Source of the DNA: an uncultured delta proteobacterium | GTDB taxonomy: Bacteria; Desulfobacterota; Desulfobacteria; Desulfobacterales; Desulfosalsimonadaceae | Assembly (NCBI GenBank): GCA_963826785.1 | Contig: CAWGYD010000008.1 | Coordinates: 384,001-448,000, forward strand | Direction of reading: 5' to 3' | DNA length: 64,000 bases | Part shown: positions 35,687-57,979 of the stretch, piece by piece | Position numbering within the stretch: position 1 is the first letter of the stretch | How the letters are laid out: every line of letters begins with the position of its first letter | The notes under the pieces: model-generated | Told to the model about the DNA's origin: nothing | Database searches by the model: none | The model's input: the letters and a program-made list of their open reading frames with translations, nothing else | Made by a program: the position numbers and the translations under genes

Positions 35687-37500
35687 GTCGAGGCCTCTGC
35701 TTCTGCGGCGTCCGACGGTTCGTCGGCCCCTCTTTTCTGTTGCGGATCCAGATCGTCAAGTCTTTTGATGACCGCCTCCCGGTGCTGATCGAGCCCATCG
35801 AGATCATCGTTTGCAATTTCGCCCCGCAGCCGGATGAGGGTGGCCGGATCATAGGTTTTCTTGATCTCTTCAATGGGCACATTTGCGCCGAGCAGATTTC
35901 GTCCGCGTTCATGGATATCTAAAAACAGGCGGAGCATTTTGACCTGCTTTTCGGGCTTGGCATAGGCATCCACCGGATTTAAGGCGTTTTGCTGCAAAAA
36001 TCCCTCCCGGAGGAGCCGGGCTGCGGCCAATACCCACTGCTGGTGGTCGGACAGGGCATCGGGTCCCACCAGCTGGACCAGCTGCTGAAGGTTGGCCTCC
36101 TCGTGCAGAATCTCCATGGCCGTATGGCGAAGGTCCTTCCAGTCGGCGGCCGCCTCTTTTTCCCACCACCGGGCGATGGGGTCGGACTGGAGGCTGTAGC
36201 TGGTCATCCAGCCCACCGCCGGATAGTGCCGCTGATGGGCCAGATCCCGGTCCAGCGCCCACCAGCACTGGGTGAAGCGCTGGGTGTGCCGGGTCACCGG
36301 TTCGGAAAAATCGCCTCCGGGGGGAGATACCGCCCCCACGATGGTCACCGAACCCTCCCGGCCGCCCAGCGTGGTGACCCGGCCGGCACGCTCATAGAAG
36401 GCGGACAGCCGTGCTGAAAGATAGGCGGGATACCCCTCTTCCACCGGCATTTCACCGAGCCGGCCGGAAATTTCCCGCAGCGCCTGGGCCCATCGGGAGG
36501 TCGAGTCCGCCATGAGGGCCACGTCATACCCCTGGTCCCGATAATACTCCGCCATGGTAATTCCCGTGTAGATGCTCGAATCCCGTGCGGATACCGGCAT
36601 ATTGGAGGTGTTGGCGATCATGATGGTCCGCTCCATCAGGGAATGTCCGGTCCAGGGATCGGTCAGTGCCGGAAATTCCTCCAGGGCTTCTGTCATTTCA
36701 TTGCCCCGTTCCCCGCACCCGATATAGACGATGATGTTGGCGTTCGACCACTGGGCCAGGGCATGCTGGATGACCGTTTTTCCCGTGCCGAACCCCCCGG
36801 GGACGGCGGCCGTCCCGCCCTTGGCCACCGGGAAAAAGGTGTCGATGACGCGCTGACCGGTGATCAGCGGCACATCCGCCTCCAGCCGATGTTGAATCGG
36901 GCGGGGCGTGCGCACGTGCCATTGCTGGGCCAGGGTAAGGGGTTGCGATTTTCCTTCGCGGTCCCGGATGAGCGCAATGCGGTCAGTAATAATGTATTCA
37001 CCTTCATCGGCGAGTTCGATGAGTTCCCCGCTCAGACCGGGGGGAACCATGATCCGATGTTCGATGAGCGGCGTTTCCTGGACCACCCCCAGGGTATCCC
37101 CGGCGGAAATATGCGCGCCCTTTTCGGTTCGCGGCTCAAATTTCCATTCCTTCTCATGATCCAGAGGTTTTACATGAACCCCCCGGCGGATGAATGTGCC
37201 GGAGCGCTCCTTGAGCAGTTCCAGGGGCCGCTGAATGCCGTCGAATACACTGCCCAGCAGCCCGGGGCCGAGGGTGACGGAAAAGGGGCGGCCGCTGCGA
37301 AAGACCGGCATGCCCGCACGCAGACCGGTGGTGTCCTCGTATACCTGGATGGTGGCCGTACCCGATGCCAGGGCGATGACCTCGGCGGTGAGCCGGTCCT
37401 CCCCGATCCAGACCTGCTCGGAGATGGTGAGTTCACCTTCCAGCCGGGCATGCACGATAAATTCACTGATCCAGGTCAGGTAGCCGATTGCATCACTCAT
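35683..37500 (-). CDS. ntpA: V/A-type ATP synthase catalytic subunit A
   Basis: P-loop [44 protein letters not shown]. Confidence 0.95.
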
Positions 37501-38134
37501 GATCCACCAGTTGTTGAAATACCCGGTTCCGGATTTCCTCTCTTGCCGATTCCAGGCGGCCGGCAAACGTCAGGTCGATCCGGCGCCTGCCATCGATGTC
37601 CGTGACGATCAGGCCGCCGTCTGTCTCTTCGGGCTTGTCCGCGCGTTTAAAAACGACATCGCCCCCGGATAATCCGGATGCTTCATCCGCCCACGCCGCC
37701 AGGTGCTCCCCGGTGAGCAGCCTGTGGCCCTTTTGATCCGATGACAGCACCCGGGTGCCGTTTCCGATGGCAGATATCGCCGCAATTGCCAGGTGTTTTA
37801 AAATCCGGGTATATTCATCCTCGCTTTGGGTCAGCTGCTGAAGCTTCACCCGGGCCTGGTCCCACACCGTGTTCAACAGCGACTCCCTTGCCTTCAGGTA
37901 CTGGCTTTTTTCCTCGATCGTTCTTTTCATGCGGCGGTGAAGGCGGATTTCACGGGCGCGTTTACGCGCGTCGGACAGGATTTCTCCACGGACCTTATCG
38001 GCCCGGCTTTTGGCCTGATCCGCAATGTGGGCGGCATTCTGCTTCGCCTGGGTTTCGATGTCATGAATTTCGCTGCTGGACACGTGCCGGATCGCTGTGG
38101 TCAGTTCATCCGGATCGCCGATGACGTTTGGCAT
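37493..38134 (-). CDS. ntpE: V/A-type ATP synthase subunit E (peripheral stalk)
   Basis: N-terminal coiled coil; GGLIV...IDLTFAGRL C-terminal motif; operon position. Confidence 0.85.
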   Translation of the reverse strand: MPNVIGDPDELTTAIRHVSSSEIHDIETQAKQNAAHIADQAKSRADKVRGEILSDARKRAREIRLHRRMKRTIEEKSQYLKARESLLNTVWDQARVKLQQLTQSEDEYTRILKHLAIAAISAIGNGTRVLSSDQKGHRLLTGEHLAAWADEASGLSGGDVVFKRADKPEETDGGLIVTDIDGRRRIDLTFAGRLESAREEIRNRVFQQLVDHE

Positions 38135-38142
38135 TTTACCTC

Positions 38143-38445
38143 CTACACGCTGATGCCGATGGCCCGGCGGACCATTTCAGCCATCGACTGTTCCGGGGGC
38201 TTGAGATCTTTGCCGGGAATTTCGATGATGATGGGGGAAAGGCGTTTCATTTTAAGCCGGTCCACCTGTTGGCGCATCTGCTCCGCCATTTTCCGGGTGA
38301 TGAGCAGAAGCTGGATCCGATCGTCTGAAAGCGCCTGATCCAGGGCATCGAGCGCCTCCTCCCGGCTTTCCGCCGTTTTTCCTGAAACACCCACCAGCTG
38401 CATGCCCAGAACCGTCTCCCGGTCCCCGATCACGTGTACGGTCAT
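38143..38445 (-). CDS. ntpF: V/A-type ATP synthase subunit F
   Basis: VIGDRETVLGMQLVG, IIEIP, VRRAIG. Confidence 0.92.
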   Translation of the reverse strand: MTVHVIGDRETVLGMQLVGVSGKTAESREEALDALDQALSDDRIQLLLITRKMAEQMRQQVDRLKMKRLSPIIIEIPGKDLKPPEQSMAEMVRRAIGISV

Positions 38446-38500
38446 GAAGCACGCCCCCGCCGCAAGGGATCATGGTTTTTACATCCGATGGATGCCATCA

Positions 38501-41936
<3,436 letters not shown>

Positions 41937-41938
41937 GA

Positions 41939-42871
41939 TCAGAGCGCCTCCCGATTGCTTTCGGCAAAAATCCGGTGGGGATGGACGGCCTTCTCCCGGA
42001 GGGTGCGAAACAGCGCATCCATCTCCTTTTCGGGGATGGCGGCGTCAAATATCACCATTTCACCGGTCCGGCCATACCGATCCAGAATCCGGGCTGTTTT
42101 CAGTGCCGCTTGCGCCTGGTGGTCCGCCTCGACCAGATGATCGGCCCAGTCTTTTGCCAGGCGCTGCCGGTTCCGGGAAATACTTTCCAGATTTTCCCGA
42201 AGGACTGCGATCCGGTGCTCGAGATCCTGGCGTTCACGGCCGGCCGCGGGTTCCCATGGGTCCAGTTCAAGCGCTTCATAAAACAGGGACTGAAGGATCC
42301 GCGTGAGGACAAAAACATCTTTTTGAAGGGCGGATGCGGCGATAAACCATTTTCCGCCGGACTCGAAGATCGGCATGATGACAAGCGGGGTTGAAACGGC
42401 GGCCAGATGGATCCTGTCCTTCTGGTCCGACGGAATCCATCCGCATTCCAGATGAATGTAGGATAGGTGCTGCATCTGCCGGAACGAAATTCCCACCTGC
42501 TGCAACCGCTCCCAGTTTTTAGAAAGGATGCGCAGCCGCTCTAGCTGCGCATTCACCTCATTTTTCCGTTCCTCCAGGGCCTGAAGTTTTTCCTCGATTT
42601 CCTCCAGGAGTCTTTGACCGTCATCGACGGCCTTTTCGATATTGATGCCCGGCAGCGGCTTTTTTTCCACGGCATCCGAGATATGCAGGGCTTGTTTCAG
42701 CCTGTGCAGCCGATGGGTGTTGTCCAGTAAACGCTCGACCAGATCGTGCCATTTGCCGGCCCCCCTTTCTTGCCCCGGTTCAAAGCGCAGATCTTCAAAC
42801 CGGGCCAGGGCCGCCGCCACCGGCTCCAGATCGGCTTCATGGATGGCCATGCTGACTTTCGTGCGGTTCAT
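41939..42871 (-). CDS. Free-standing homologue of the subunit I/a N-terminal soluble domain, no membrane domain
   Basis: Aligns by eye with subunit I NT: ALARFEDL vs ALGRFESF, WHDL vs WSDL, ALHI vs ALQI, YIHLECGWIP vs YMHWVVGTMP, PLVIMP vs PFVVMP; ATGA overlap with subunit C. Confidence 0.75.
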   Translation of the reverse strand: MNRTKVSMAIHEADLEPVAAALARFEDLRFEPGQERGAGKWHDLVERLLDNTHRLHRLKQALHISDAVEKKPLPGINIEKAVDDGQRLLEEIEEKLQALEERKNEVNAQLERLRILSKNWERLQQVGISFRQMQHLSYIHLECGWIPSDQKDRIHLAAVSTPLVIMPIFESGGKWFIAASALQKDVFVLTRILQSLFYEALELDPWEPAAGRERQDLEHRIAVLRENLESISRNRQRLAKDWADHLVEADHQAQAALKTARILDRYGRTGEMVIFDAAIPEKEMDALFRTLREKAVHPHRIFAESNREAL

Positions 42872-43938
42872 GCATACCCCCGTTTTCCGATCAGGCACGG
42901 GCGGATCCGATCGGTCGGCCATCCGTAGGCGACGCCCTCCAGGGTGGTAATCAGATCTTCCACTTCCGATTCGACGAGCACCAGGTACGCCAGTATGGTC
43001 CCGAAGTGCAGGGGATAATGCATCAGTGTTTCAAGGGCCAGTCCATGCAGGTACCGGCGAAAAATGACTTCAAGATCGACCAGGGCATCCCGGGTACGCT
43101 GGTCCTGCAGCCGGTCCATATCGGGCAGACGGCCGTCCCAGATGGCGCTGATGATTTCGACCAGGGAACCGCCCGACGCCGCCCCCTGGATAAGCGCCGC
43201 ATTCACGCGGCCTCCGGTGGGCAGGGAATAGCCGAGAATGGTTTCGGGTTCCAGGTGAAAGAAAATCCGGTAGCGATATGCCCACAGGATATTGCGGCTG
43301 TCGATGATCGTGCCGACAATCCGCTGCGCATCCCTTCCGTCCCTGCCCGCAAGACGGTTGAGCAGATCCTGCAGCCGGCGGTAATAGGCCAGGTACAAGG
43401 CCACTTCCAGTATAAAAACATTGTCCCGGCGGATATATTCATTATAAGCGTTCTCCAGGGCACGGGCATAGAAGCGGCCGAAAAACGACATCTTGATTCG
43501 GCCGATGGCGTCATGCACGGAACTGGCGTTGCTCAGGACATGCCAGTCGAACTGGGTCCCGGCCCGCAGCGGAACCAGAAAAGACCGGATCCGGGCGGCC
43601 GGAATGCGGTTATGGAGGCCGCGCAGCAAAATGACCAGGTTGCTGATCTCAAACGGCCGCCAGAGCCAGTCGACCATATCGCTCACCGCGCCCTGCAGAA
43701 AGGGGATCGGCAACCGGAAACGGTCCGAAAGGAAACGGCGCAGCCGTTTTTCAATCTCCTCGATGTTTTGAGGCTGATCGGCAAACAGTTCTCCATAAGC
43801 GGTGCCGGCGGCTGCGGAAAGAAAGCCCTGGGTATCCGATGCGGTTATAAGGACCTCCCAGTCCGCATCTGAAAGCATGCGGCCGATGGCTGCCCGCACG
43901 GCGGCATGCGGGGCGGCATATGTGAACATGTCCATCAT
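42868..43938 (-). CDS. ntpC: V/A-type ATP synthase subunit C/d (AC39 family)
   Basis: Y...HAAVRAAIGRML, EISNL, IDSRNILWAYR, ILAYL..VESEVEDL; 356 aa. Confidence 0.88.
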   Translation of the reverse strand: MMDMFTYAAPHAAVRAAIGRMLSDADWEVLITASDTQGFLSAAAGTAYGELFADQPQNIEEIEKRLRRFLSDRFRLPIPFLQGAVSDMVDWLWRPFEISNLVILLRGLHNRIPAARIRSFLVPLRAGTQFDWHVLSNASSVHDAIGRIKMSFFGRFYARALENAYNEYIRRDNVFILEVALYLAYYRRLQDLLNRLAGRDGRDAQRIVGTIIDSRNILWAYRYRIFFHLEPETILGYSLPTGGRVNAALIQGAASGGSLVEIISAIWDGRLPDMDRLQDQRTRDALVDLEVIFRRYLHGLALETLMHYPLHFGTILAYLVLVESEVEDLITTLEGVAYGWPTDRIRPCLIGKRGYA

Positions 43939-43952
43939 GGTCGCATCATGGT

Positions 43953-44282
43953 TTACTCCGTTTTTGCGGTGACCCAGTCCACCAGGAAATCGACCGCCCG
44001 GTTCATGTTGTCCCGGGCGTGCCGGCGCAGCACCTGGATATCCGGGGATTCATCGGATGCCCCCGTGGCCTGTTCGGCCTCGGATGCTTCGACCAGGGCG
44101 TCGGCTTCGGATTGCGCCTCCTTTCGGGCCCTGTTCACCATTTCTTCCGCCCGGTTCCTTGCCGCCTCTATGGTCGATTCCGCCTCTCTTCGGGCGTTTT
44201 CCACATTCTGGCGGGCATTTCTGTCCGCATCGAATAATTGCCGGATGATGTTCTGATGTTCTGAAACGTTTTTTCCGGGCAT
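43953..44282 (-). CDS. V/A-type ATP synthase subunit G/H (peripheral stalk)
   Basis: IRQLFDADRNARQNVENARREAE coiled coil; N..RAVDFL C-terminus; first gene of the operon. Confidence 0.8.
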   Translation of the reverse strand: MPGKNVSEHQNIIRQLFDADRNARQNVENARREAESTIEAARNRAEEMVNRARKEAQSEADALVEASEAEQATGASDESPDIQVLRRHARDNMNRAVDFLVDWVTAKTE

Positions 44283-45900: not shown

Positions 45901-45942
45901 TTGACATCCCGGGAAGAACTCTTTATTGTTCACACTATGAAC
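45901..45942 (+). promoter_or_regulatory. Sigma-70 promoter with overlapping MarR-type operator
   Basis: TTGACA(45901)-17 bp-TATTGT(45924); palindrome GTTCA-N5-TGAAC at 45928-45942. Confidence 0.7.
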
Positions 45943-46422
45943 GAAAAAAAACTATCTGCTTTCCGCACAAACCCGCCGGCGGCTTTTCAGGTGACCCGGC
46001 TCAAGGAACTGGTGACGGATATGGTCAAATGCTGCGAAGATCGCAGGATCTATGAGCATTCCCGCTTCGGCCTCCCCTATGGGGAATTGCGCTGCCTGAT
46101 GCTGTTTGACGGCGAGCATTACCTGACCGTCAAAACCCTTGCGAAAAAAATGGATGTGGCCAAGAGCCGGGTGACCCAGGTGGTGGACCAGCTGTCCGGA
46201 AAAGGGTACCTGACCAAACTCGACGACCCTGCGGACGCCCGGGTGAAGCTCATCGGCCTTACCGCCGCCGGCCGGGAAAAAGTGCGCCAGGTGGATGATT
46301 TCTACAAGGAAATTCATCGGGAAATTTTAAAGCAGATCAGCGAAGAAGATCGAAAAATGCTGCTGTCGTACATGGAAATGCTTCACGGGGCCATGGAAAC
46401 GGTCCGGGAAAAGCTGGTGTAA
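45937..46422 (+). CDS. MarR-family transcriptional regulator
   Basis: LTVKTLAKKMDVAKSRVTQVVDQL..KGY...DPADARVKLIGLTAAG winged helix. Confidence 0.9.
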   Translation: MNEKKLSAFRTNPPAAFQVTRLKELVTDMVKCCEDRRIYEHSRFGLPYGELRCLMLFDGEHYLTVKTLAKKMDVAKSRVTQVVDQLSGKGYLTKLDDPADARVKLIGLTAAGREKVRQVDDFYKEIHREILKQISEEDRKMLLSYMEMLHGAMETVREKLV

Positions 46423-46457
46423 ACCCGGGCAGACCTGAGATTTTTTTTGTCCTAATA

Positions 46458-46472
46458 GTTAATAGTATTAAC
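46458..46472. promoter_or_regulatory. Second operator GTTAA-N5-TTAAC
   Basis: Perfect palindrome of the same geometry as the marR site, 30 bp upstream of the dsrE-like gene. Confidence 0.6.
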
Positions 46473-46501
46473 AAAAACCAGAAACACAGGATGGAGACAT
46501 T

Positions 46502-47071
46502 ATGGAACCGACGACAACCGTCACCCTCGAATCCCTGCATGAGCAGATCGAAGCCCTGGAGGGACAGGTCCGGACCCTGGCCGGGTCCGGGCCGGAAAAC
46601 AAAATGTCCATGATCGTATTTTCCGGCGATCTGGACAAGCTCATCGCCGCTTTTGTCATCGCCACGGGGGCCGTGGCCATGGGAATGGATGTGGTGATGT
46701 TCTTCACCTTCTGGGGAACCCCCGCCCTGCGCAGTGAATCCGGGAATGCCGGCAGGAAAGACCTGATGGGCAAGATGTTCGGAGCGGCCCTGCCCCGGGG
46801 AGCGGACCGGGCCAGGCTTTCCAAGATGAACATGGGCGGCATGGGAACGGCCATGATGAAATCGCTGATGAAAAAGAAAAATGTGGCATCGCTTCCCGAG
46901 ATGATCCAGATGGCGGCCGAACTCGGCGTGCGCGTCTATGTGTGTGAAATGTCCATGGACCTGATGGGCTTTACCCATGAGGAAATGATAAAATACCCGG
47001 ACCTGACCTACTGCGGCGTGGCCAAATTCCTGGAGGAAGCCGCCGGCAGCAAAATACAGCTGTTTATCTGA
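46502..47071 (+). CDS. DsrE2/DsrE-like sulfurtransferase family protein
   Basis: FSGDLDK, FFTFWG, LSKMNMGGMG, VCEMSMDLMG, GVAKFL, C-terminal LFI. Confidence 0.88.
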   Translation: MEPTTTVTLESLHEQIEALEGQVRTLAGSGPENKMSMIVFSGDLDKLIAAFVIATGAVAMGMDVVMFFTFWGTPALRSESGNAGRKDLMGKMFGAALPRGADRARLSKMNMGGMGTAMMKSLMKKKNVASLPEMIQMAAELGVRVYVCEMSMDLMGFTHEEMIKYPDLTYCGVAKFLEEAAGSKIQLFI

Positions 47072-47105
47072 TGAGCCGTAAACAATTTCTTCCTGACTGA
47101 AACAA

Positions 47106-47237
47106 GATGAAGCCGTAAAAAGTCGGATTTTACGCTGTCGTCATTCCGGCGGAGGCCGGAATCTACTACAAACTAAGCTGGTTATAGACTCCGGTTTTCA
47201 CCGGAGTGACGAACTTTGGACTTTTTACGGGTTCATC
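47106..47237. mobile_element. MITE-like element with nested REP-like palindromes
   Basis: 19-bp terminal inverted repeats (18/19 match) flanked by AAACAA direct repeats; internal GTCATTCCGGC...GCCGGAATC and GACTCCGG...CCGGAGTGAC hairpins. Confidence 0.8.
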
Positions 47238-47278
47238 AAACAAGCCTAACCCAAAAAACGAACAAAGGAGATTCGATA

Positions 47279-47515
47279 ATGTCTGAAGCCATCGCAAAAT
47301 CCGTCGATCTTAAAGGGCTGCCCTGCCCTATGCCCGTGGTGAAAATGAGCAAGGCCATAAAGGAAGTTCAAATCGGGGAAGTGATCGAGTGTGAAACATC
47401 CGATCCCGGCGCCCGGGCCGATTTTCCCGCATGGGCCAGGACCAGCGGAAACGAAATCCTCAAATCCGAACAGGACGGCAAGATCACCCGATTTCAGATT
47501 AAAAGGCTCAAGTAA
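47279..47515 (+). CDS. tusA: TusA-family sulfur carrier protein
   Basis: DLKGLPCPMPVV and SDPGARADFPAW; AAAGGAG RBS. Confidence 0.92.
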   Translation: MSEAIAKSVDLKGLPCPMPVVKMSKAIKEVQIGEVIECETSDPGARADFPAWARTSGNEILKSEQDGKITRFQIKRLK

Positions 47516-47528
47516 CGGGGAGTTTGAA

Positions 47529-48239
47529 TTGGAAAACCTTTATTATTTCATTCTGGTCCCCATGGTCTACCTGGCCTTTGCGGTTTTCTTCGGGGGCACA
47601 GCCTATCAGCTGGTAAGGATCTGGCGGAGGCCGGCGAATCCGGTCCCCCTTCACCTGTATCCGAAAAAGCGGCATGGCTTTCTAAATGCCCTTTCCGACA
47701 CATTTCTGCTGCCCACGGTCCTGCGGCGAAAACCCCTGCTGTGGGGGTTTCTCATGGCCTTTCACATCTGCCTGCTGCTGACCATCGTCGGCCACCTGGA
47801 GCTGTTTGCCGATATTAAGGCGATCCAGGTCATTCCCCACCAGATTTTTCTGGGGGGTGGATTTTTAGGGCTGATCCTGTCCATCTGCCTGCTCTATTTT
47901 TTAGGCCGCCGGTTCTTTTCACCCGTGCGGGATATCTCCGTGCCCGAGGATTATTTCCTGCTGATCCTGCTCTTTCTGGTGGTCCTGTTCGGATCGGAGA
48001 TGGACTGGGCCCGCAACTGGTTTTATTACAGCACCATGTATGTCGAGGACTACCGGGAATACCTGATGAGCCTGCTCACCTTGAAGCCGGTGCTGAGCGA
48101 CACCATTACCGGCTCGGGGCATACCTTCATGCTGGTGCTGCACGTGCTGTTCGCCAACCTGTTTTTAATGGCGTTTCCCTTCAGCAAGATCATGCATGCC
48201 TTTCTGGCCCTGCCGGTCAACCAATTGAAAAGAGGATAG
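47529..48239 (+). CDS. NarI/DsrM/HmcE-like membrane b-type cytochrome
   Basis: About 5 TM helices; heme His pairs FH...GH and LH...PFSKIMH; TTG start with GGGGAG RBS. Confidence 0.82.
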   Translation: MENLYYFILVPMVYLAFAVFFGGTAYQLVRIWRRPANPVPLHLYPKKRHGFLNALSDTFLLPTVLRRKPLLWGFLMAFHICLLLTIVGHLELFADIKAIQVIPHQIFLGGGFLGLILSICLLYFLGRRFFSPVRDISVPEDYFLLILLFLVVLFGSEMDWARNWFYYSTMYVEDYREYLMSLLTLKPVLSDTITGSGHTFMLVLHVLFANLFLMAFPFSKIMHAFLALPVNQLKRG

Positions 48240-48242
48240 ACA

Positions 48243-49496
48243 ATGGATGCCAAAACCCGCGCCGATCTCTTGGCGCTTTTTGAAAGCAAGCTCAACTATG
48301 CCATGCGCCTCTACCTGGAAACCTGCTCCCGGTGCGGCGTGTGCACCGAGGCCTGCCACGTGTATGCCTCCATGCCCAAGGCCAAAAATATCGCCGCATA
48401 CCGCGCAGAGATCGTCCGCCGGATATACAAGAAATATTTCAAAGCCCAGGGCCGGATCATGCCGGCTCTGGGTGAAGCCCGGCCCCTTTCCGAACTGGCC
48501 CTCGAGGAACTCTACGAGGCCGCCTACTCCTGCACCGGATGCCGGCGATGCATGACCTTCTGCCCCTTCGGCATCGACACCCAGATGATCATGTCCATTG
48601 CCAAACTCCTGCTGGTGGGCGCCCACGCGGAGCCGGAAATCCTGACCATGCTGGCCGATACCTCCATCCAGAAGGGTCAATCCCTGGAGATCTTCCGGGA
48701 AGGTTTTCTGGAATCGGTGAAGGAACTGGAGGCGGACGTTCTGGAAAAATGGAAATCCGAGGCGGGAAAAACGGTGATTCCCGTGGATGTCAAGGGTGCA
48801 AACCTGCTTTACGTGGCCCTGGCCGGTTCCCATTCCATGGTCCCGGCGGCGGCCGTGTTCAACGCGGCCGGTGAAAAGTGGACGCTCTCTTTTTTCGAGG
48901 CGGTCAATTTCGGAGCGTTTGTGGGCGATCCCTCCCGGACCCGGCTGATCCTGGACCGCATCATCAATGAGGCCAGGCGCCTTGAAGTCAAGGAAGTCTG
49001 CATCTGCGAGTGCGGCACCGCCTTCCGGGTGATGAAGCAGATGGCCGGAAACCAGCCCTTTACGGTCAGCTCCATCACCGAGGTTCACGCGCGGTATATC
49101 CGGGAGGGTCGGATCAAGCTGAAAAAGGAAAAAATTTCTGCCCCCCTGACCTATCACGATCCCTGCCAGCTGGCCCGAAACGGCGGGGTCATGGACGAGC
49201 CGCGCTATATCCTCTCCCACCTGGCCGGCAATTTCCGGGACATGTCCCCCAAACCGGCGGACAACTGGTGTTGCGGCGGTGGCGGCGGCCTGGTGGCGCT
49301 GGGGGAAGACACGCTGGATTTCAGGATGAAGTCGGCAAAAGTCAAGGCCGAACAGGTGAAGAAAACCGGCGCAAAAATCCTGGCCACCGCCTGCGAGAAC
49401 TGCCACACCCAACTGTGCAATTTAAACGACCATTACCAGATGGGCACCGACGTCCGCTTTCTCTCCTCCATGGTGGCAGACGCCCTGGTAGAATAG
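48243..49496 (+). CDS. DsrK/HdrD/HmcF-like Fe-S oxidoreductase with CCG domain
   Basis: CSRCGVCTEAC, CTGCRRCMTFCPFGID, ECG, YHDPC, WCCGGGGG, TACENC. Confidence 0.88.
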   Translation: MDAKTRADLLALFESKLNYAMRLYLETCSRCGVCTEACHVYASMPKAKNIAAYRAEIVRRIYKKYFKAQGRIMPALGEARPLSELALEELYEAAYSCTGCRRCMTFCPFGIDTQMIMSIAKLLLVGAHAEPEILTMLADTSIQKGQSLEIFREGFLESVKELEADVLEKWKSEAGKTVIPVDVKGANLLYVALAGSHSMVPAAAVFNAAGEKWTLSFFEAVNFGAFVGDPSRTRLILDRIINEARRLEVKEVCICECGTAFRVMKQMAGNQPFTVSSITEVHARYIREGRIKLKKEKISAPLTYHDPCQLARNGGVMDEPRYILSHLAGNFRDMSPKPADNWCCGGGGGLVALGEDTLDFRMKSAKVKAEQVKKTGAKILATACENCHTQLCNLNDHYQMGTDVRFLSSMVADALVE

Positions 49497-52053: not shown

Positions 52054-53653
52054 TCACATCGAAACGGATGTTTCCGTTGCTTTTTCCATCATCATGTCCA
52101 GATGAAAACGGACCGGGCCCCGGTAGCGGTGATCCTCGCCGAAACGGGTATGCAGCGCATATTCGGATGTGGGCAGGGACCAGGAAGTGGCAATGGCCAC
52201 ATGCCCTTTGGGAAAGGGTGCGATTTCCGCCTGAATGTAATCCAGGGGGGCCAGCGCGCTCGGCTTTTCCACCAGGGAATCCTGCTCCCCGTAGCAGATA
52301 AGCATCCGGATGCCCTTTTCCTGCAGCCGTTTGATGTTGAGCGGCCGGTCGAAGGCCTTGAACGGAAGGGTCCCGTCCTTGGAAATGGGATGGTTATAGG
52401 ACAAAAAGCTCAACCGGGTGATTTCCATGGGCAGATCGTGACGCTGGCAGGTAATCCAGTAATTTAAAGCCGCGGCGGTTTTGCTGAGTTTCATCCCCCG
52501 TTTCTTCAGGATGCTGAACATGGCCAAATCCCGGTACAAGGTATTTACCGGATATTCCGTCTGGATGCTCTTTAATTTATAGACCCAGCTCATCAGGTCG
52601 CCATCGGCTACCCGGTTGCCGTTTGGAAGCACCTTGGTCCCGTATTCCAGGGAGTTGAACCGATCGGGCAGGTTTTCCAGAAAATGCCGGAAGTGTGCGC
52701 TCCGGGTGCCGTCGATGGGGGCCACACAGGTGATATGGGTATCCACCAGGCCGTCGAGTTCACCGGAAAGCAGGTTGCTCAGGGTGATCAATCCCCCCTG
52801 GCAGTATCCGTTCAATGTCAGCGGCCGGCCATGTTCCGCCACGATCTTTTCACAGAAATATTTCATATCCCGGATATCGTCTTCCAGGGTGATCTTTTGC
52901 ATGGCCGGGGTGGTGTCGATGGGTTTCATGATCCGCACATAGGTGGGAATCCCCTGGTTGGCAAAGCTGTGCACATAGCTCTTGTTCTCCCCCGGAAGAA
53001 AGGCCAGGATATCGGCCCCCAGCACATAAGGGTGAACAATCAGGATCGGCTTTGCCGTTTTCGCGTTCGTCGATATCGGTTTCCGTCGGCAGGACCCGGT
53101 AGCAGAAGAAGCGGTCGGTTTCGGCAATCTTGCGGTATCCGCCGCGTTCGAAGTGAAATCCGAATTCATCTGCGATCTCCGAAATCGCCCGGGGATATTC
53201 ATGCGCCACCTGCCGGGTGATGTCGGCAATTCGCTCGATATAATCGAATATGTCGCCTTCCGTGCTGCCGGCAAAGGTTTTCATCACGGCATTGACGGCC
53301 TTTTCCATTTCAGCGGAGTGGAATTCAACCATGGTATCCAGGCTGCTTGAAATCGCCTGAAAGGCAAGATCCATATTAAAAGCGATCAATTTCATATACT
53401 CGGGCCAAGCGCCGGCCGGCGGATCGGTGCCCGCTTTTGCCGCCTCGGCCTGGTTGAAATAATTGAGCGCCTTGACCCAGGAATTGAAATAATCCGCGTT
53501 GTAATCCGCCAATGCCTGCCAGTAATCATATCCGGCCCGGGTCAGCCCGTAATTCGCGTTTTCGATCTTCTTCTCATAATTCCAAAATTTATCGATTCCT
53601 TTAAACAAAGACGGATTGAAATCAGAGATCGACATATTCATGATGGTTTCCAT
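52054..53653 (-). pseudogene. PHA synthase-like alpha/beta-hydrolase, frameshifted at about 53052
   Basis: One extra A breaks NGKPILIVHPY; GYCQGG nucleophile elbow, GEQD and KGH triad positions. Confidence 0.75.
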
Positions 53654-53687
53654 TCAGAAATCTCCATAAGGCCCTGGTTTGTGGATT

Positions 53688-54155
53688 TCAAAGCACGTTG
53701 CCCTGCAGGTATTGATGCATACAGGTTTTAAGATGCCCCTTCAAATGCGAATCCAGCTCTTCCAGGCACTCATTGCACAGAGAAATCGATTCTTTCGTCT
53801 GGTACAACTGTCTGAACGGCACTGTCTTGTTGCACCAGTTGCAGCTGACGGAAAGCCATTTGATCCCGGCGATGTAGGGCGGCTCGGATCGCTTTTTCTG
53901 CCAGATGAGCTTTGCTTCGGGAGCATAGATGGGGGCCGAGCCGGTCTGGCCGGCAATCGGAGGCGCAAAATGGATGACGGAATTTTCAGGAAGCGGGTGG
54001 CTGGAGATGAATCCGAGCCCGCCCTTGCTGTAATTTTTCGTCAATGCCGAAAAAACATCCTTTTCTCCTTCGGCGCGAAACCGGATGGGGGCATTGACGG
54101 CGTATCGTTTATATGCCCTGGCATTTGAATCTTCAACATGATCCTGATTCATCAT
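53688..54155 (-). CDS. PilZ-domain protein with C-terminal CxxC...CxxC zinc-ribbon-like motif
   Basis: RAYKR and NYSKGG; CNWC...CNEC; AAGGAG RBS. Confidence 0.75.
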   Translation of the reverse strand: MMNQDHVEDSNARAYKRYAVNAPIRFRAEGEKDVFSALTKNYSKGGLGFISSHPLPENSVIHFAPPIAGQTGSAPIYAPEAKLIWQKKRSEPPYIAGIKWLSVSCNWCNKTVPFRQLYQTKESISLCNECLEELDSHLKGHLKTCMHQYLQGNVL

Positions 54156-54411
54156 TGTTCGTCTCCTTTCATTGGGGAATGGAGAACTGTGTAAACAAAT
54201 GTAATGCCCGCAGCACTATGATGCCAGTGGGGTCAGCCGCTTTATTTGAAGAAATCGGTTGCGCCACCCGCACCCGGAAATGACCAGGCCATAGCCGATG
54301 GAACAGGCGCTGATTTGACAGCAGCGGATCCGATGGAAACCATTTTGCCATGCCCTTTCTTCGGGGCCTCGGGAAAACTTCAAACACGCGAACAGCAGCA
54401 AAGGAATGGTA

Positions 54412-55260
54412 ATGAATATTCAAATTCAGGAACCTCAAATCCTCGAGCAGGATATACTGAGAGTGGACGACCCGGATTTTCGTCCGGAGCATGTATGCAT
54501 CGTCACCGGCGCCGGCGGCGGGATCGGGCGGGCCACCGCCATTGCCGCCGCCGCCAACCATCTAACGGTGGCGGGGCTGGATATCGATGAAGAAAGCGGT
54601 CAACAGACCGCGAAAATGGCAAAGGACCTGGGCGGCCAGATGGTGTTCATCCGGACGGATCTCACCCGGGATGAAGATATCGTGCACGCCGTTTCCGAAG
54701 CGGCCAAAAAGGGAACGATCAAGTACCTGGCCAATATCGCCGGCATCCAGCACATCGATTCCATCGAGAATTTTCCCATGGACAAATACGACCTGATGCA
54801 GAAGATCATGCTGCGCGCCCCCTTTTACCTGTCCAAACTCAGCCTGCCCCACATGAAAAAGAGTTCCGGCGGGACCGGGGCTGTCGGCAACATGGCTTCC
54901 GTGCACGCCCACATCTGCACCATCAACAAGGCGGTTTACAACATCACCAAGTTCGGCCTGCGGGCGCTGACACAATCCATTGCCGCAGAAGGGGGAGGCA
55001 AAGTCCGGTCCTTTTCCGTGAGCACCGGGTTTGTGAAGACCGCCCTGGCCCTGAAGCAGGTTCCGGCCCAGGCGAAGCAGCGCGGTATCACCGAAGACGA
55101 AGTCGTGCGCGACGTGATGATGGGCAAGTCGCGGATCAAGGAAATGATGGCCCCCATAGAGGTGGGGAACCTGTTCGTCTACGGTTTTTCACGATTTTCC
55201 AGGTACCTGATCGGAGGTGATCTCCTGTTTGACGGCGGGATGACGCTGACGTACATGTAG
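54412..55260 (+). CDS. bdhA: SDR oxidoreductase, D-3-hydroxybutyrate dehydrogenase-like
   Basis: TGAGGGIG, AGIQHIDSIENFP, ASVH, YNITK; located in the pha cluster. Confidence 0.75.
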   Translation: MNIQIQEPQILEQDILRVDDPDFRPEHVCIVTGAGGGIGRATAIAAAANHLTVAGLDIDEESGQQTAKMAKDLGGQMVFIRTDLTRDEDIVHAVSEAAKKGTIKYLANIAGIQHIDSIENFPMDKYDLMQKIMLRAPFYLSKLSLPHMKKSSGGTGAVGNMASVHAHICTINKAVYNITKFGLRALTQSIAAEGGGKVRSFSVSTGFVKTALALKQVPAQAKQRGITEDEVVRDVMMGKSRIKEMMAPIEVGNLFVYGFSRFSRYLIGGDLLFDGGMTLTYM

Positions 55261-55279
55261 GAACGATCTTGGACGAAAT

Positions 55280-55302
55280 CGCAAAAAGCATCCCTTTTTG
55301 CG
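55280..55302. terminator. Hairpin between convergent genes
   Basis: CGCAAAAAG-catcc-CTTTTTGCG. Confidence 0.45.
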
Positions 55303-55358
55303 CGATATTTTTGCAGTAAGCGGCGCTTTAAAAAGTGGTCAAACCATTTGATGGGCGC

Positions 55359-55778
55359 TTATTTTTTGGGCGGGCTGATGACGGCTGTGCCGTCCAGGAC
55401 GACCGTGCCATCCTGATTGATGCACCGGGTGCTTGCGGTGATCCGGTTTTTTTCGGAATCGATGCGGGTGACCTCCACCACCGCTCGGATGGTGTCGCCG
55501 ATTTTTACCGGGGCCTTGAAATTGAGTTCCTGGCGGATGTAAATCGCGCCGGGGCCGGGGAGATGGTTTCCTAAAACATTGGAGATAAAGCCCGCCGACA
55601 GCATGCCGTGGGCGATGCGGGTCTTGAAGAATGTGCCCCTGGCATATTCCTCGTTGACATGGGCGGGGTTGAAATCGCCGGTGATCCCGGCATACGCATA
55701 TATGTCGCCCTCGGATACGGTCTTGGCAAATTCGGCCGTGTCCCCGACCCGGATTTCATCAATTGTCCTGCCCTTCAT
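55359..55778 (-). CDS. phaJ: MaoC-family (R)-specific enoyl-CoA hydratase
   Basis: TGDFNPAHV, RIAHGML, LPGPG, FKAPVKIGDT. Confidence 0.88.
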   Translation of the reverse strand: MKGRTIDEIRVGDTAEFAKTVSEGDIYAYAGITGDFNPAHVNEEYARGTFFKTRIAHGMLSAGFISNVLGNHLPGPGAIYIRQELNFKAPVKIGDTIRAVVEVTRIDSEKNRITASTRCINQDGTVVLDGTAVISPPKK

Positions 55779-55806
55779 CCAAAGGCTCCTTTTCTAAAAT
55801 ATAATA

Positions 55807-56829
55807 TCAGAACCATGACCGGTGTGCCCACATGTCATCTTTCAAATCACTGTATTTGTCTTCGAGAATGGCAAAACTGGTGGCATTCCCGATGGACAGC
55901 CCGGCCTGATGGGCGAGTGCGTTGAACATCATGATTTCATCATCATAAAAAGGCCGATATGCGGCGAAATACAGCCACATCATGCCGGAAATATCCTCAC
56001 CGGAGCGGATCGGGGCGCCCATGAGGCCCATGACGCCCTGTTGCTGCAGCGCTTCCGGCACAGGCATATGATCATTGGGAAGAATCAGCGTTTTGCCTGT
56101 CAGGATGTCCCGGGTACGGATTCCCCCGGCCACCGCGGCGGCAGCCAGGATATCGGGGCTCAATCCATGATGGGTCACCAGCACCGGTTCCCCGGTTTTC
56201 CGGTCCACCAGGTAAACGGCTGCGCCCTTTGCCCCGTAACCCCGGGTGAGGTCAACGGTCAGCGTATTCATGATCTGCTTTAGATCCAGAGACGCATTTA
56301 TACCTGCCGTCAGGTCGTGAAACATCTTCGTCATCTTCCGGATATGCACGATCAGCCGGGCCCGGTCAACTGCAATTCCGGCATTGGCTGCAAGGGCCGA
56401 AAAGAAGGCGATTTCGTCGCGGCCGAATTCGTGCTTTTCAGATTTGTACAAAAAGAACACCCCCATGGGTTGGTTGCCGGTCATCACCGGAACGGCCATG
56501 TAGGAAGCGATCCCTTCCTCGGCCAGAAGTCCCGGATGCGAGGCGCAGTCGTCATCGATGATATCGGAAATTTTCCGGCACCCGCTTTTGAGAAGCTCCT
56601 CGAGGATGGCTTTTGCGCGGTCCGGCTCCGCCTGGAGATGTTTTTCGGACAGTCCCCGATGCACCGCAGGCAGAAACCGGCTGTTTTCCGGGTGCATCAG
56701 GCAAAGGCACGCACCCCTGGCGTCGAGGGCGTCAACGGCGATATCCATCAGCAGGTCCAGCAGTTCCCTTTTTTTGATGGCCGCACCCTGTGCCCGGCTG
56801 ATTTCACAGAGATGTTCAAAGTAGTTCAT
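55807..56829 (-). CDS. Tandem-GAF domain protein in the pha operon
   Basis: Two GAF-like repeats (EGIASYMAVPV; GVMGLMGAPI); start overlaps the phaC stop. Confidence 0.8.
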   Translation of the reverse strand: MNYFEHLCEISRAQGAAIKKRELLDLLMDIAVDALDARGACLCLMHPENSRFLPAVHRGLSEKHLQAEPDRAKAILEELLKSGCRKISDIIDDDCASHPGLLAEEGIASYMAVPVMTGNQPMGVFFLYKSEKHEFGRDEIAFFSALAANAGIAVDRARLIVHIRKMTKMFHDLTAGINASLDLKQIMNTLTVDLTRGYGAKGAAVYLVDRKTGEPVLVTHHGLSPDILAAAAVAGGIRTRDILTGKTLILPNDHMPVPEALQQQGVMGLMGAPIRSGEDISGMMWLYFAAYRPFYDDEIMMFNALAHQAGLSIGNATSFAILEDKYSDLKDDMWAHRSWF

Positions 56830-57979
56830 GTTCCGCTCCGGTTTGCTTGTCCTTTGCCAGTAAATAGTAATCCTTCACATGGATCGATGCACGGTCCGCA
56901 TCCCGATCCGAAAGCCAGCTGATGATTTTGGGGACAAATTCCTTTTTCGATTTGGAGCTGACATAAATGCCGATATGGCCGGTTTCCAGCCGGAAATCTT
57001 CCGTGTCGTGGCTGCCCACCCGGCTCGTGATGAGATTGGCCGCCCCCGGCGGCACCAGATGATCGAACTGGGCGTAAATATTGAGCAGCGGCATGGTGAT
57101 GCGGTTTAAATCCACATGCTTTCCCTCCAGTTCGTACCGGTTTTGAATCAGCAGGTTCTTCTGGTAGAAATCCCGAATGAACTGGCGAAAGGTCTCCCCG
57201 GGTACATCGGGACTATCGAAGATCCATTTTTCCATGCGGATGAAATTTTCCACGTAATCCATGCTGTCGAAATTTTCCGTAAACCCCACGTATTTGTCGA
57301 TCATCAACCGGGCGGGATTGAGCAGCAGGAATCCCAGGTTCATGATGTCCCCGGGGACGTTTCCGTAGGCCTCGACCAGGGCGTCGGGATCCACGTACTT
57401 CATCCAGATATGCAAAAGCCCGTCATCCGTATCGAAATTGGACGGGGTGACCGTGGTGATCAGGTTCTTGATCTTTTCCGGGTAGAGCGCGCTGTAGATC
57501 AGGCTGAACGTGCCGCCCATGCAGATACCCATCAGGTTGATCTGCTCCAGATCATGGCGGCGGCGGATAAAATCGACAATGTTGTTCATGTAGCCGTTGA
57601 CGTGATCCCCGATGCCGACGAACCGGTCCATCTTCGTAGGATATCCCCAATCGACCACATACAGCTCCATGCCGGCATCCAGCATGCTGCGGATCACGCT
57701 TCGGTCCGGCTGAAGGTCGAGCATGGTCTCCCGGTTGATCAGGGCATATACCATCAGCAGGGGCGTTTGGATATGCCCCTCCGGGCGGTTTGGGGGCAGG
57801 TAGTGCTTCAGCTTGACCCGATCCTCCGTGTAGACCACCTCATACGGCGTTTCGGAAATCCGGGTGTTTAACGGACTGACCATGATCTGGGCGGCCTTTT
57901 TGCTTCTCTTTCTTGCCCTGTCCATGTCCTGGGCCAGACGGGATAAAATCAGATCCACCGGAACACCTGAGCGGTTCAT
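56816..57979 (-). CDS. phaC: Class III PHA synthase catalytic subunit
   Basis: YALINR, LDLQPDRS, GICMGG, RMEKWIFDSPDVPGE, DHLVPP, GHIG. Confidence 0.95.
   Translation of the reverse strand: MNRSGVPVDLILSRLAQDMDRARKRSKKAAQIMVSPLNTRISETPYEVVYTEDRVKLKHYLPPNRPEGHIQTPLLMVYALINRETMLDLQPDRSVIRSMLDAGMELYVVDWGYPTKMDRFVGIGDHVNGYMNNIVDFIRRRHDLEQINLMGICMGGTFSLIYSALYPEKIKNLITTVTPSNFDTDDGLLHIWMKYVDPDALVEAYGNVPGDIMNLGFLLLNPARLMIDKYVGFTENFDSMDYVENFIRMEKWIFDSPDVPGETFRQFIRDFYQKNLLIQNRYELEGKHVDLNRITMPLLNIYAQFDHLVPPGAANLITSRVGSHDTEDFRLETGHIGIYVSSKSKKEFVPKIISWLSDRDADRASIHVKDYYLLAKDKQTGAEHELL

Follow-up and report, generated by a model that had tools for sequence, protein, structure and literature searches.

The 64,000-nucleotide window analyzed here belongs to an uncultured delta proteobacterium of the Desulfosalsimonadaceae (assembly GCA_963826785.1, contig CAWGYD010000008.1). 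At positions 45937-49496 it contains five open reading frames (ORFs) that lie on the same strand in one run. They encode a MarR-family repressor (45937-46422, plus strand), a DsrE2-like sulfur carrier (46502-47071, plus), a TusA-family sulfur carrier (47279-47515, plus), a NarI/DsrM-like (NarI-gamma) dihaem cytochrome b subunit with a TTG start codon (47529-48239, plus), and a catalytic Fe-S subunit related to DsrK, HmcF and TmcB (48243-49496, plus). The intergenic gaps are, in order, 79, 207, 13 and 3 bp. We propose that these genes form a conserved unit, in which a quinone-linked membrane enzyme is predicted to dock TusA and likely frees the TusA-bound sulfur as sulfide; the probability of this reading as a whole is estimated at about 50%. 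The five-gene order given for this place in the initial annotation was borne out by matching domain profiles, and so was its remark that the ORFs of the window include no dsrC, dsrJOP or hmc/tmc gene adjoining the unit. Elsewhere, the host genome (88% complete, 4.4 Mb) encodes dsrAB, dsrC, dsrMKJOP and HmcF, and the unit therefore appears as an extra system in a genome of the sulfate-reducer type.

The Fe-S subunit combines two ferredoxin cluster motifs and one CCG motif (C308, C343, C344, C384 and C387) with an extra cysteine of the GECGH type. This residue, Cys257 within ECGT, is the counterpart of the cysteine in the GECGH motif of DsrK. The cluster ligands, all CCG cysteines and Cys257 are invariant in 89/89 Fe-S homologues. 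The motif cysteine of DsrK is described as probably essential (PMC10861901), and a cryo-EM preprint finds it persulfidated and proposes a sulfur relay (bioRxiv 10.64898/2026.08.25.746951). Two positions depart from DsrK. The last CCG ligand is Cys here and Asp in most DsrK (19/24), while the residue after the catalytic cysteine (Thr259 here) is Thr in 66 and His in 23 of the 89 homologues but His in 24/24 DsrK. The AlphaFold model of the subunit has a pLDDT of 90.5, and its fold matches EtfD and HdrB.

By score, the best NCBIfam match of the Fe-S subunit is DsrK (NF045796; 267.5 bits versus a cut-off of 400), and the HmcF and TmcB models gave 215 and 203 bits versus 735 and 750, so that all three cut-offs were missed. 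The phylogenetic comparison with these families, suggested in the initial annotation, was carried out as a quick maximum-likelihood tree of 125 proteins with SH-aLRT support and no bootstrap; 46 loci were picked for spread, and two comparison loci were dropped as too short. The tusA-linked Fe-S proteins formed a clade of their own (SH-aLRT 99), apart from the DsrK side (97), which includes one locus with a dsrC-membrane-Fe-S order (L260), and from HmcF/TmcB together with dsrC-linked pairs (99). Two tusA-less copies and one membrane-fused protein also fall into the tusA-linked clade. Identity with the basal DsrMK of PMC10504309 was considered and is rejected by this tree, in which the sequences of that paper itself were not placed. 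Because membership in DsrK fails on score, clade and gene context, we set the Fe-S subunit apart from DsrK, DsrMK-like though it is. An assignment to HmcEF or TmcBC was supported neither by the NCBIfam cut-offs nor by multihaem partner genes in the window nor by the clade.

The membrane subunit has five hydrophobic helices and four haem histidines (His79, His89, His205 and His223), each conserved in 128/128 sequences, as in cytochromes b of the DsrM/NarI type. It scores 46 bits versus a DsrM cut-off of 300 and has no adjacent dsrJOP, which sets it apart from DsrM-2. It reads Gly88-His89-Leu-Glu where 17/17 aligned DsrM proteins have Arg-His-x-Arg. In the preprint cited above, the quinol site is open in NarI and DsrM-1, and arginines block it in the DsrM-2 of DsrMKJOP. 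If Gly88 corresponds to the position of these arginines, a mapping that we infer, it would fit an open quinol site as in NarI and DsrM-1. The two subunits likely form a quinone-linked enzyme.

Each of the two carrier proteins has one invariant cysteine. TusA matches Pfam PF01206 at 73 bits (cut-off 28.6) and carries the N-terminal CPxP motif as CPMP, with Cys16 invariant in 123/123 sequences and P17 and P19 likewise invariant; sulfane sulfur on the motif cysteine is documented for other TusA proteins (PMC11094781). A search for TusA fused to a longer protein found none, which is weak evidence. The DsrE-family protein was called DsrE2-type in the initial annotation. The family assignment stands (Pfam DrsE_2, E 8e-51; Cys148 invariant in 120/120 aligned), while the subtype does not, as the score versus the NCBIfam DsrE2 model (NF047629) is 78.5 bits with a cut-off of 210, and one hydrophobic segment is predicted versus the two transmembrane helices that mark the Allochromatium-type DsrE2 (PMC12998232). 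On these two grounds the protein is termed DsrE2-like, as distinct from the membrane-anchored Allochromatium type.

The linkage of tusA to the membrane and Fe-S genes was followed in two scans. The genome scan covered 33 of 64 parts and, with the best 80 matches kept, gave at least 79 loci; a metagenome scan that included distant relatives gave 80. Where there was room upstream, tusA stood beside the pair in 71/71 genome and 54/54 metagenome loci, and a dsrE-family gene was present in 63/66 and 45/47, respectively, counts that are not independent since the loci are kin to each other. By comparison, dsrC lay beside the unit in 1/159 loci. The tusA linkage holds for Fe-S subunits with as little as 42% identity, persists under changed gene orders including dsrE-M-tusA-K, where M and K denote the membrane and Fe-S genes (L093, L095, L102 and L118), and is kept where dsrE was lost (L029, L065 and L087). 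The exceptions are two copies that consist of M and K alone (L137 and L138). The grouping of the five genes is far beyond chance, and the synteny elsewhere on which the initial annotation had made its proposal depend is therefore present. In one locus (L067:1122-7248), the dsrE-tusA-M-K block is duplicated in tandem. Loci L185 (128-2926) and L217, both from one lineage, have genes for a PhsA/PsrA-like molybdoenzyme and an Fe-S protein divergent from the unit.

Carriers of the unit span Desulfobacterales, Desulfatiglandales, Syntrophobacteraceae, Desulfarculaceae, Nitrospirota and Ca. Eisenbacteria. The distribution is patchy, with 23 of 400 genomes of the phylum and none of the 36 other genomes of Desulfosalsimonadaceae carrying the unit; the single match in the latter set is 36% identical and falls into another clade of the tree. 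Such patchiness would suit a biosynthetic supply of sulfur through TusA for cofactors, tRNA thiolation or cysteine, with no role in energy metabolism or detoxification, and E. coli TusA proteins do serve anabolic relays (PMC11094781). We regard this alternative as very improbable and poorly fitting: the TusA of the unit misses the cut-off for the E. coli type (38 versus 78 bits), no biosynthetic gene was found among the annotated recurrent neighbors, and the regulon is apparently the unit alone.

Occurrence of dsr genes was surveyed in 78 entries comprising 50 of the 79 loci and 28 genomes, with some genomes entered twice. A DsrC-family match was found in 68 and a dsrAB match in 62 of the 78. 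Ten entries have neither dsrA nor dsrC, counting two whose sole DsrC matches are weak and stop-interrupted; none of the ten gave a match to aprA (control G182 positive), and no other DsrK match was found in the five of the dsr-less carriers that were tested. Four further carriers, all from one small phylum, also lack dsrA and dsrC (control G508 positive). Eleven of these 14 genomes have a whole Fe-S gene; in one it runs off the contig, and in two it is broken. Completeness of the whole-gene genomes is known for two (94% and 91%), and six belong to a set with an 80% filter. Co-occurrence with dsrAB and dsrC, as expected for a true DsrK, thus holds for the host genome and most carriers but not for these 11. 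As far as sequence can tell, exclusive use of DsrC by the Fe-S protein, which would have spoken against the initial annotation, is not what was found. Its suggestion of a special tie to disproportionation gained no support, as the unit is intact in genomes with no dsrAB and aprA matches.

The same survey bears on the proposal that the pair is an auxiliary DsrMK, reducing DsrC-trisulfide while TusA and DsrE merely feed DsrC. The DsrC-family matches in 68/78 entries agree with it, as do the DsrK model being the best NCBIfam match, the DsrK label that some sources give to homologues, the exchange of sulfur between TusA and DsrC in vitro (PMC13293266) and the broken unit in two dsr-less genomes. 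In one genome (G050), dsrC even lies 1.3 kb downstream of the unit; this closeness was judged accidental, as the gene sits between miaA and ahbA and the dsrC of the host genome is also near an ahbA-like gene. The whole Fe-S gene in 11 genomes with no dsrC/dsrA match, the separate clade, and predicted docking-face residues unlike those of DsrK all speak against the proposal, which fits poorly and is quite improbable. Three dsrAB-less genomes carry both the tusA unit and a second, separate dsrC-linked Fe-S gene, and one DsrK-like relative (P0134) is fused to a DsrC-like domain; going by these cases, the paralogues each appear to have retained a carrier of their own.

Several irregular dsr-related genes were seen along the way. 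A separate dsrC-membrane-Fe-S unit (L141:7204-9595, L142 and L140) occurs in three genomes with no dsrAB or aprA matches. In the host genome, dsrK is split into two frames (G000:C6:513414-515034) and the dsrB frame is short at 316 aa (C4:79493-80404), either of which may be an assembly error. A further host gene (G000:C1:465810-466436) consists of two tandem DsrC-like domains that lack the C-terminal cysteines, and paired matches of the same kind appear in several carrier genomes.

The complex prediction proposed in the initial annotation was run for the Fe-S subunit and TusA, each with its own 90-row alignment. The model scored 0.76 versus 0.01 for the best control, DsrC not being among the controls, with a passing mark that is reached by 116/157 solved complexes and 2/215 mismatched pairs and applies roughly here because own alignments were used. 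The runs share at least 89% of contacts, with a TusA pLDDT of at least 85. TusA residues 15-21, which include Cys16, contact residues 193-199, 217-223, 351-354 and 385-389 of the Fe-S subunit, and the CPMP loop of the model lies at the catalytic cleft next to the CCG ligands. The Cys16 loop is thus predicted to bind in the cleft where Cys257 and the single non-cubane cluster are found. A sequence search found no solved DsrK-type chain, and memory of a like complex is therefore an unlikely source of the model. The prediction supports the binding of TusA, short of showing it.

The two tusA-less copies provide an independent look at the same surface. In these loci, 5/8 conserved contact sites are changed versus 3/83 other conserved sites (Fisher p 6e-5), while among 44 tusA-linked copies 39 changed none of the eight sites, four changed one and one changed two. 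Residues L137, L193 and G195 of the Fe-S subunit are kept in 120/120 further homologues, and a homologue in Desulfomonile tiedjei (P0333) retains three of four docking residues. At the predicted docking face, the residues are unlike those of DsrK and unlike those of HmcF/TmcB. Taken together, the synteny, the intact copies in genomes lacking dsrA and dsrC, the passing complex model and the contact loss in tusA-less copies make TusA a well-supported partner of the Fe-S subunit, in which we have high confidence; the idea of TusA instead of DsrC, raised from the window alone, is strengthened accordingly. The tusA-less pairs occupy L137:7208-9186 and L138:6771-8734, the latter behind a TauE/SafE gene, and the L138 pair may have a new substrate.

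A possible source of sulfur is indicated by the genes that flank the unit in other genomes. Among annotated flanking clusters, the only recurrent module neighbors are a FadL-type channel and an ArsR gene. The channel, an outer-membrane protein of the FadL/TodX family with a conserved Cys pair, lies directly behind the Fe-S gene in 37/60 of the closest, Desulfobacterota-type loci (e.g. L092:7319-8578), in 1/11 more distant genome loci and in 0/57 metagenome loci; it is absent next to the unit of the window. In the phylum sample, 11 of 18 carriers of the FadL-type gene also have the Fe-S gene, and in 5/7 of the carriers that lack the pair the channel adjoins a dsrE2-like gene or this marR. FadL-type genes with no membrane pair were also seen beside CsoR-like genes. 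For Chlorobaculum, transport of hydrophobic sulfur chains by a FadL protein has been suggested, as a proposal only (10.1101/172254). The channel context points to S8 or polysulfide as the sulfur in question.

From these parts the following mechanism may be drawn. Reactive sulfur would modify the cysteines of MarR and lift repression. Cys148 of the DsrE2-like protein would take up sulfane sulfur and pass it to Cys16 of TusA, a direction modelled on DsrE3 and TusA (PMC11094781), and from TusA it would move on to Cys257 in the Fe-S subunit, in the way proposed for the transfer from DsrC to Cys329 of DsrK. Electrons would run from quinol through the two haems and two cubanes to the non-cubane cluster, and H2S would leave. 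In relatives with the FadL-type channel, sulfur may enter from outside as S8 or polysulfide; the host genome has no FadL-type gene at the unit, and there the system could dispose of, or make use of, sulfur arriving in the cytoplasm. Persulfide reduction is, on balance, the probable reaction.

This assignment has to be weighed with the energetics. The potential of menaquinone is about -74 mV and that of the persulfide/sulfide couple about -230 to -270 mV. On these values, reduction of plain persulfide by menaquinol would be uphill, and a quinol site on the periplasmic side, as in NarI and DsrM-1 (bioRxiv 10.64898/2026.08.25.746951), would make it harder still. Such a reduction would call for a quinone of lower potential or for sulfur in a more oxidised adduct. 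A motif filter for a methylmenaquinone methyltransferase had no match in the host genome and is too crude to count. The same parts, with TusA still as the partner, might run in reverse, oxidizing sulfide or TusA-bound sulfane sulfur and passing electrons to the quinone pool as a membrane-coupled sHdr or reverse DsrMK. With menaquinone, the oxidative direction runs downhill; if the quinone site faced the periplasm, of which the open-site signature would be a sign, the membrane potential would pull the same way. DsrE-to-TusA relays feed oxidizing enzymes in sHdr/rDsr organisms (PMC11094781, PMC13293266), and the TauE/SafE sulfite-exporter gene upstream of L138 could be read in the same sense, but that copy is one of those that lost tusA. 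Because the named hosts are anaerobes of sulfate-reducing orders, many carriers lack the dsrAB and aprA that would process sulfite, and the FadL-type channel and ArsR gene are the sole recurrent neighbors, we hold oxidation to be possible yet clearly less probable than persulfide reduction.

Alternatively, the enzyme could be a reductase with a different adduct as its substrate, either a TusA-S-thiosulfonate derived from tetrathionate or a mixed di- or trisulfide of TusA and DsrE, which would take the place of the DsrC cysteine pair. Thiosulfonate adducts would be easier to reduce with menaquinol. The one invariant Cys in each carrier suits the mixed sulfide, although dsrE is missing from 5/113 loci with room while tusA stays. 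For the thiosulfonate, Metallosphaera TusA and DsrE3A form such adducts on cysteine from tetrathionate (PMC4175335), and the PhsA/PsrA-like gene diverges from the unit in L185 and L217; this neighbor was seen in one lineage only, and polythionates are a less fitting cargo for a FadL-type channel than hydrophobic solutes. Overall, we consider such adducts an unlikely substrate; this reading and oxidation are the two rivals to be taken seriously.

Besides the energetics, further observations weigh against persulfide reduction by a TusA-docked enzyme. The best-known roles of TusA and DsrE2 are in sulfur oxidation (PMC11094781, PMC13293266), Thr replaces the GECGH His of DsrK in 66/89 homologues, and Dsr is present in most carriers. 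The two broken Fe-S genes belong to dsr-less genomes (G190 and G335), and their decay suggests that the unit loses value in that genus once Dsr is gone; a TAG read-through in G190 was rejected, because a stop interrupts its membrane gene as well and the lesion in the sister genome is a frameshift. Assemblies can drop dsrC, since G505 and G507 have dsrA and no dsrC match. DsrC was absent from the complex controls, and close cousins of a partner can pass. The contact-loss test amounts to one event, L137 and L138 being sisters. Finally, a 99% complete genome with only a tusA-less copy (G200) keeps the pair and has no match to the TusA profile of the module.

Regulation of the unit appears to be self-contained. 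A sigma-70-type promoter, TTGACA-17-TATTGT (45901-45929, plus), ends 7 nt 5' of the marR ATG, and CTTGACA occurs in 39/55 marR upstream regions; the marR transcript would thus be leaderless. The palindrome GTT(C/A)A(T/C)-N3-(A/G)T(G/T)AAC was found over the marR start in 58/60 loci and in the marR-dsrE gap in 37/60, with a background of 60 matches per 669 kb. In the window, operator 1 (45928-45942) overlaps the end of the -10 element and the marR start codon, where coding constraint could add to its conservation, and operator 2 (46458-46472) lies in non-coding DNA of the marR-dsrE gap. Across the 4.4-Mb genome the 46458 site scores best and the 45928 site second. Matches of 14-15 bits at the starts of hcp-like and aprB-like genes were not accepted as a wider regulon, and the MarR regulon in the host genome appears to be the five-gene unit alone. 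No operator was found before the FadL gene in the 37 loci. MarR, which presumably binds these palindromes, carries Cys32 in 63/63, Cys33 in 61/63 and Cys53 in 53/63 sequences. Repressors of such families sense sulfane sulfur, and conserved cysteines combined with an operator over its own promoter place this MarR among candidate sensors. In place of marR, distant clades carry an ArsR-family gene whose product has a conserved Cys (34 loci matched). Of the inducible system suggested at the outset, self-regulation is supported by the conserved operator. Within the unit, 132 bp (47106-47237) of the 207-bp dsrE-tusA gap is a dispersed repeat with 19-bp terminal inverted repeats and 35 copies in the genome; it is an insertion outside the module. 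Ten terminators were predicted in the unit versus 7.3 expected and were not used as evidence.

The closest known system is the DsrMK core of DsrMKJOP, a menadiol:DsrC-trisulfide oxidoreductase (PMC10861901; bioRxiv 10.64898/2026.08.25.746951) that acts last in sulfate respiration. The tusA unit shares with it the dihaem NarI-type subunit, the two cubanes with one CCG non-cubane site, the extra ECG-motif Cys and, by inference, action on protein-borne sulfur. Unlike DsrMK(JOP), it scores below the DsrK and DsrM cut-offs, falls into a separate clade, is linked to tusA and dsrE instead of dsrC and dsrJOP, has Cys where the last ligand is commonly Asp, Thr at the His position in most copies and Gly instead of Arg before the haem His, occurs in genomes lacking dsrAB, and has its own repressor and operator. 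HmcEF/TmcBC and the dsrC-linked M/K pairs form a neighboring branch with the same domain plan, a single CCG motif with Cys as last ligand and a T/GECG motif. However, the scores of 203-215 bits are far from 735-750, a multihaem partner is missing, the docking-face residues differ, and the sister pairs on the HmcEF/TmcBC side carry dsrC or a fused DsrC-like domain, which the tusA unit does not.

Other systems resemble the unit in their carriers. The sHdr system (PMC11094781) likewise has a DsrE/TusA relay beside a heterodisulfide-reductase-type enzyme, but the unit of the window, to which this search was confined, contains no HdrA/B/C or LbpA gene, has a membrane cytochrome b partner, and its named hosts are anaerobes. 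The YTD cluster (yedE-tusA-dsrEFH type II; PMC13293266, PMC12998232) also joins tusA to a DsrE-family gene in Desulfobacterota, whereas yedE and DsrF/H are absent from the unit and from the annotated neighbor clusters, a single larger DsrE2-like protein is present, and the unit has its own redox enzyme. In a flavoprotein with TusA and DsrE modules, the carriers are tied to a redox enzyme and sulfide release is proposed; that protein is soluble, NADH-dependent and itself a prediction, in contrast to the membrane-bound tusA unit. No published description of the five-gene set was found in the literature searched, mostly non-subscription and excluding supplements, and none is given in the available parts of PMC10504309, PMC8477390, PMC8528874, PMC13490349, PMC10839748, PMC6378623, PMC12998232, PMC13293266 and PMC3543383. 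DsrK trees and synteny tables in supplements (PMC10504309, PMC8477390 and the 2026 preprint) might show it.

More broadly, and only tentatively, a second, widespread branch of the DsrMK family may have swapped DsrC for TusA and, with the DsrE2-like protein and the FadL-type channel, may constitute a complete and inducible, DsrAB-independent uptake of elemental sulfur coupled to the quinone pool. If true, the unit would represent an undescribed way to handle elemental-type sulfur by docking TusA instead of DsrC, would account for a cytoplasmic S0 step that is so far missing from sulfate reducers, disproportionators and uncultured anaerobes, and would imply that DsrK-type enzymes change protein substrate through few docking residues. 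Carrier, enzyme, regulator with operator and candidate channel are all specified, and existing DsrMKJOP and TusA assays could be applied to each. For annotation, the DsrK label on some homologues can make Dsr-less genomes look like sulfite reducers.

According to the ORF list, the upstream flank of the unit comprises a hypothetical gene together with a V-type-ATPase-like operon on the opposite strand. An RlmI-like methyltransferase gene lies downstream. The V/A-type-ATPase-like operon (37493-44282, minus strand) encodes a 980-aa I-type subunit that seemingly has a duplicated N-terminal part, and the 327-aa product of an adjacent gene resembles this N-terminal part. Further downstream, a polyhydroxyalkanoate-synthesis-like cluster (52054-57979, minus strand) contains a synthase-like, a MaoC-like, a short-chain dehydrogenase and a GAF-domain-like gene, again according to the ORF list.

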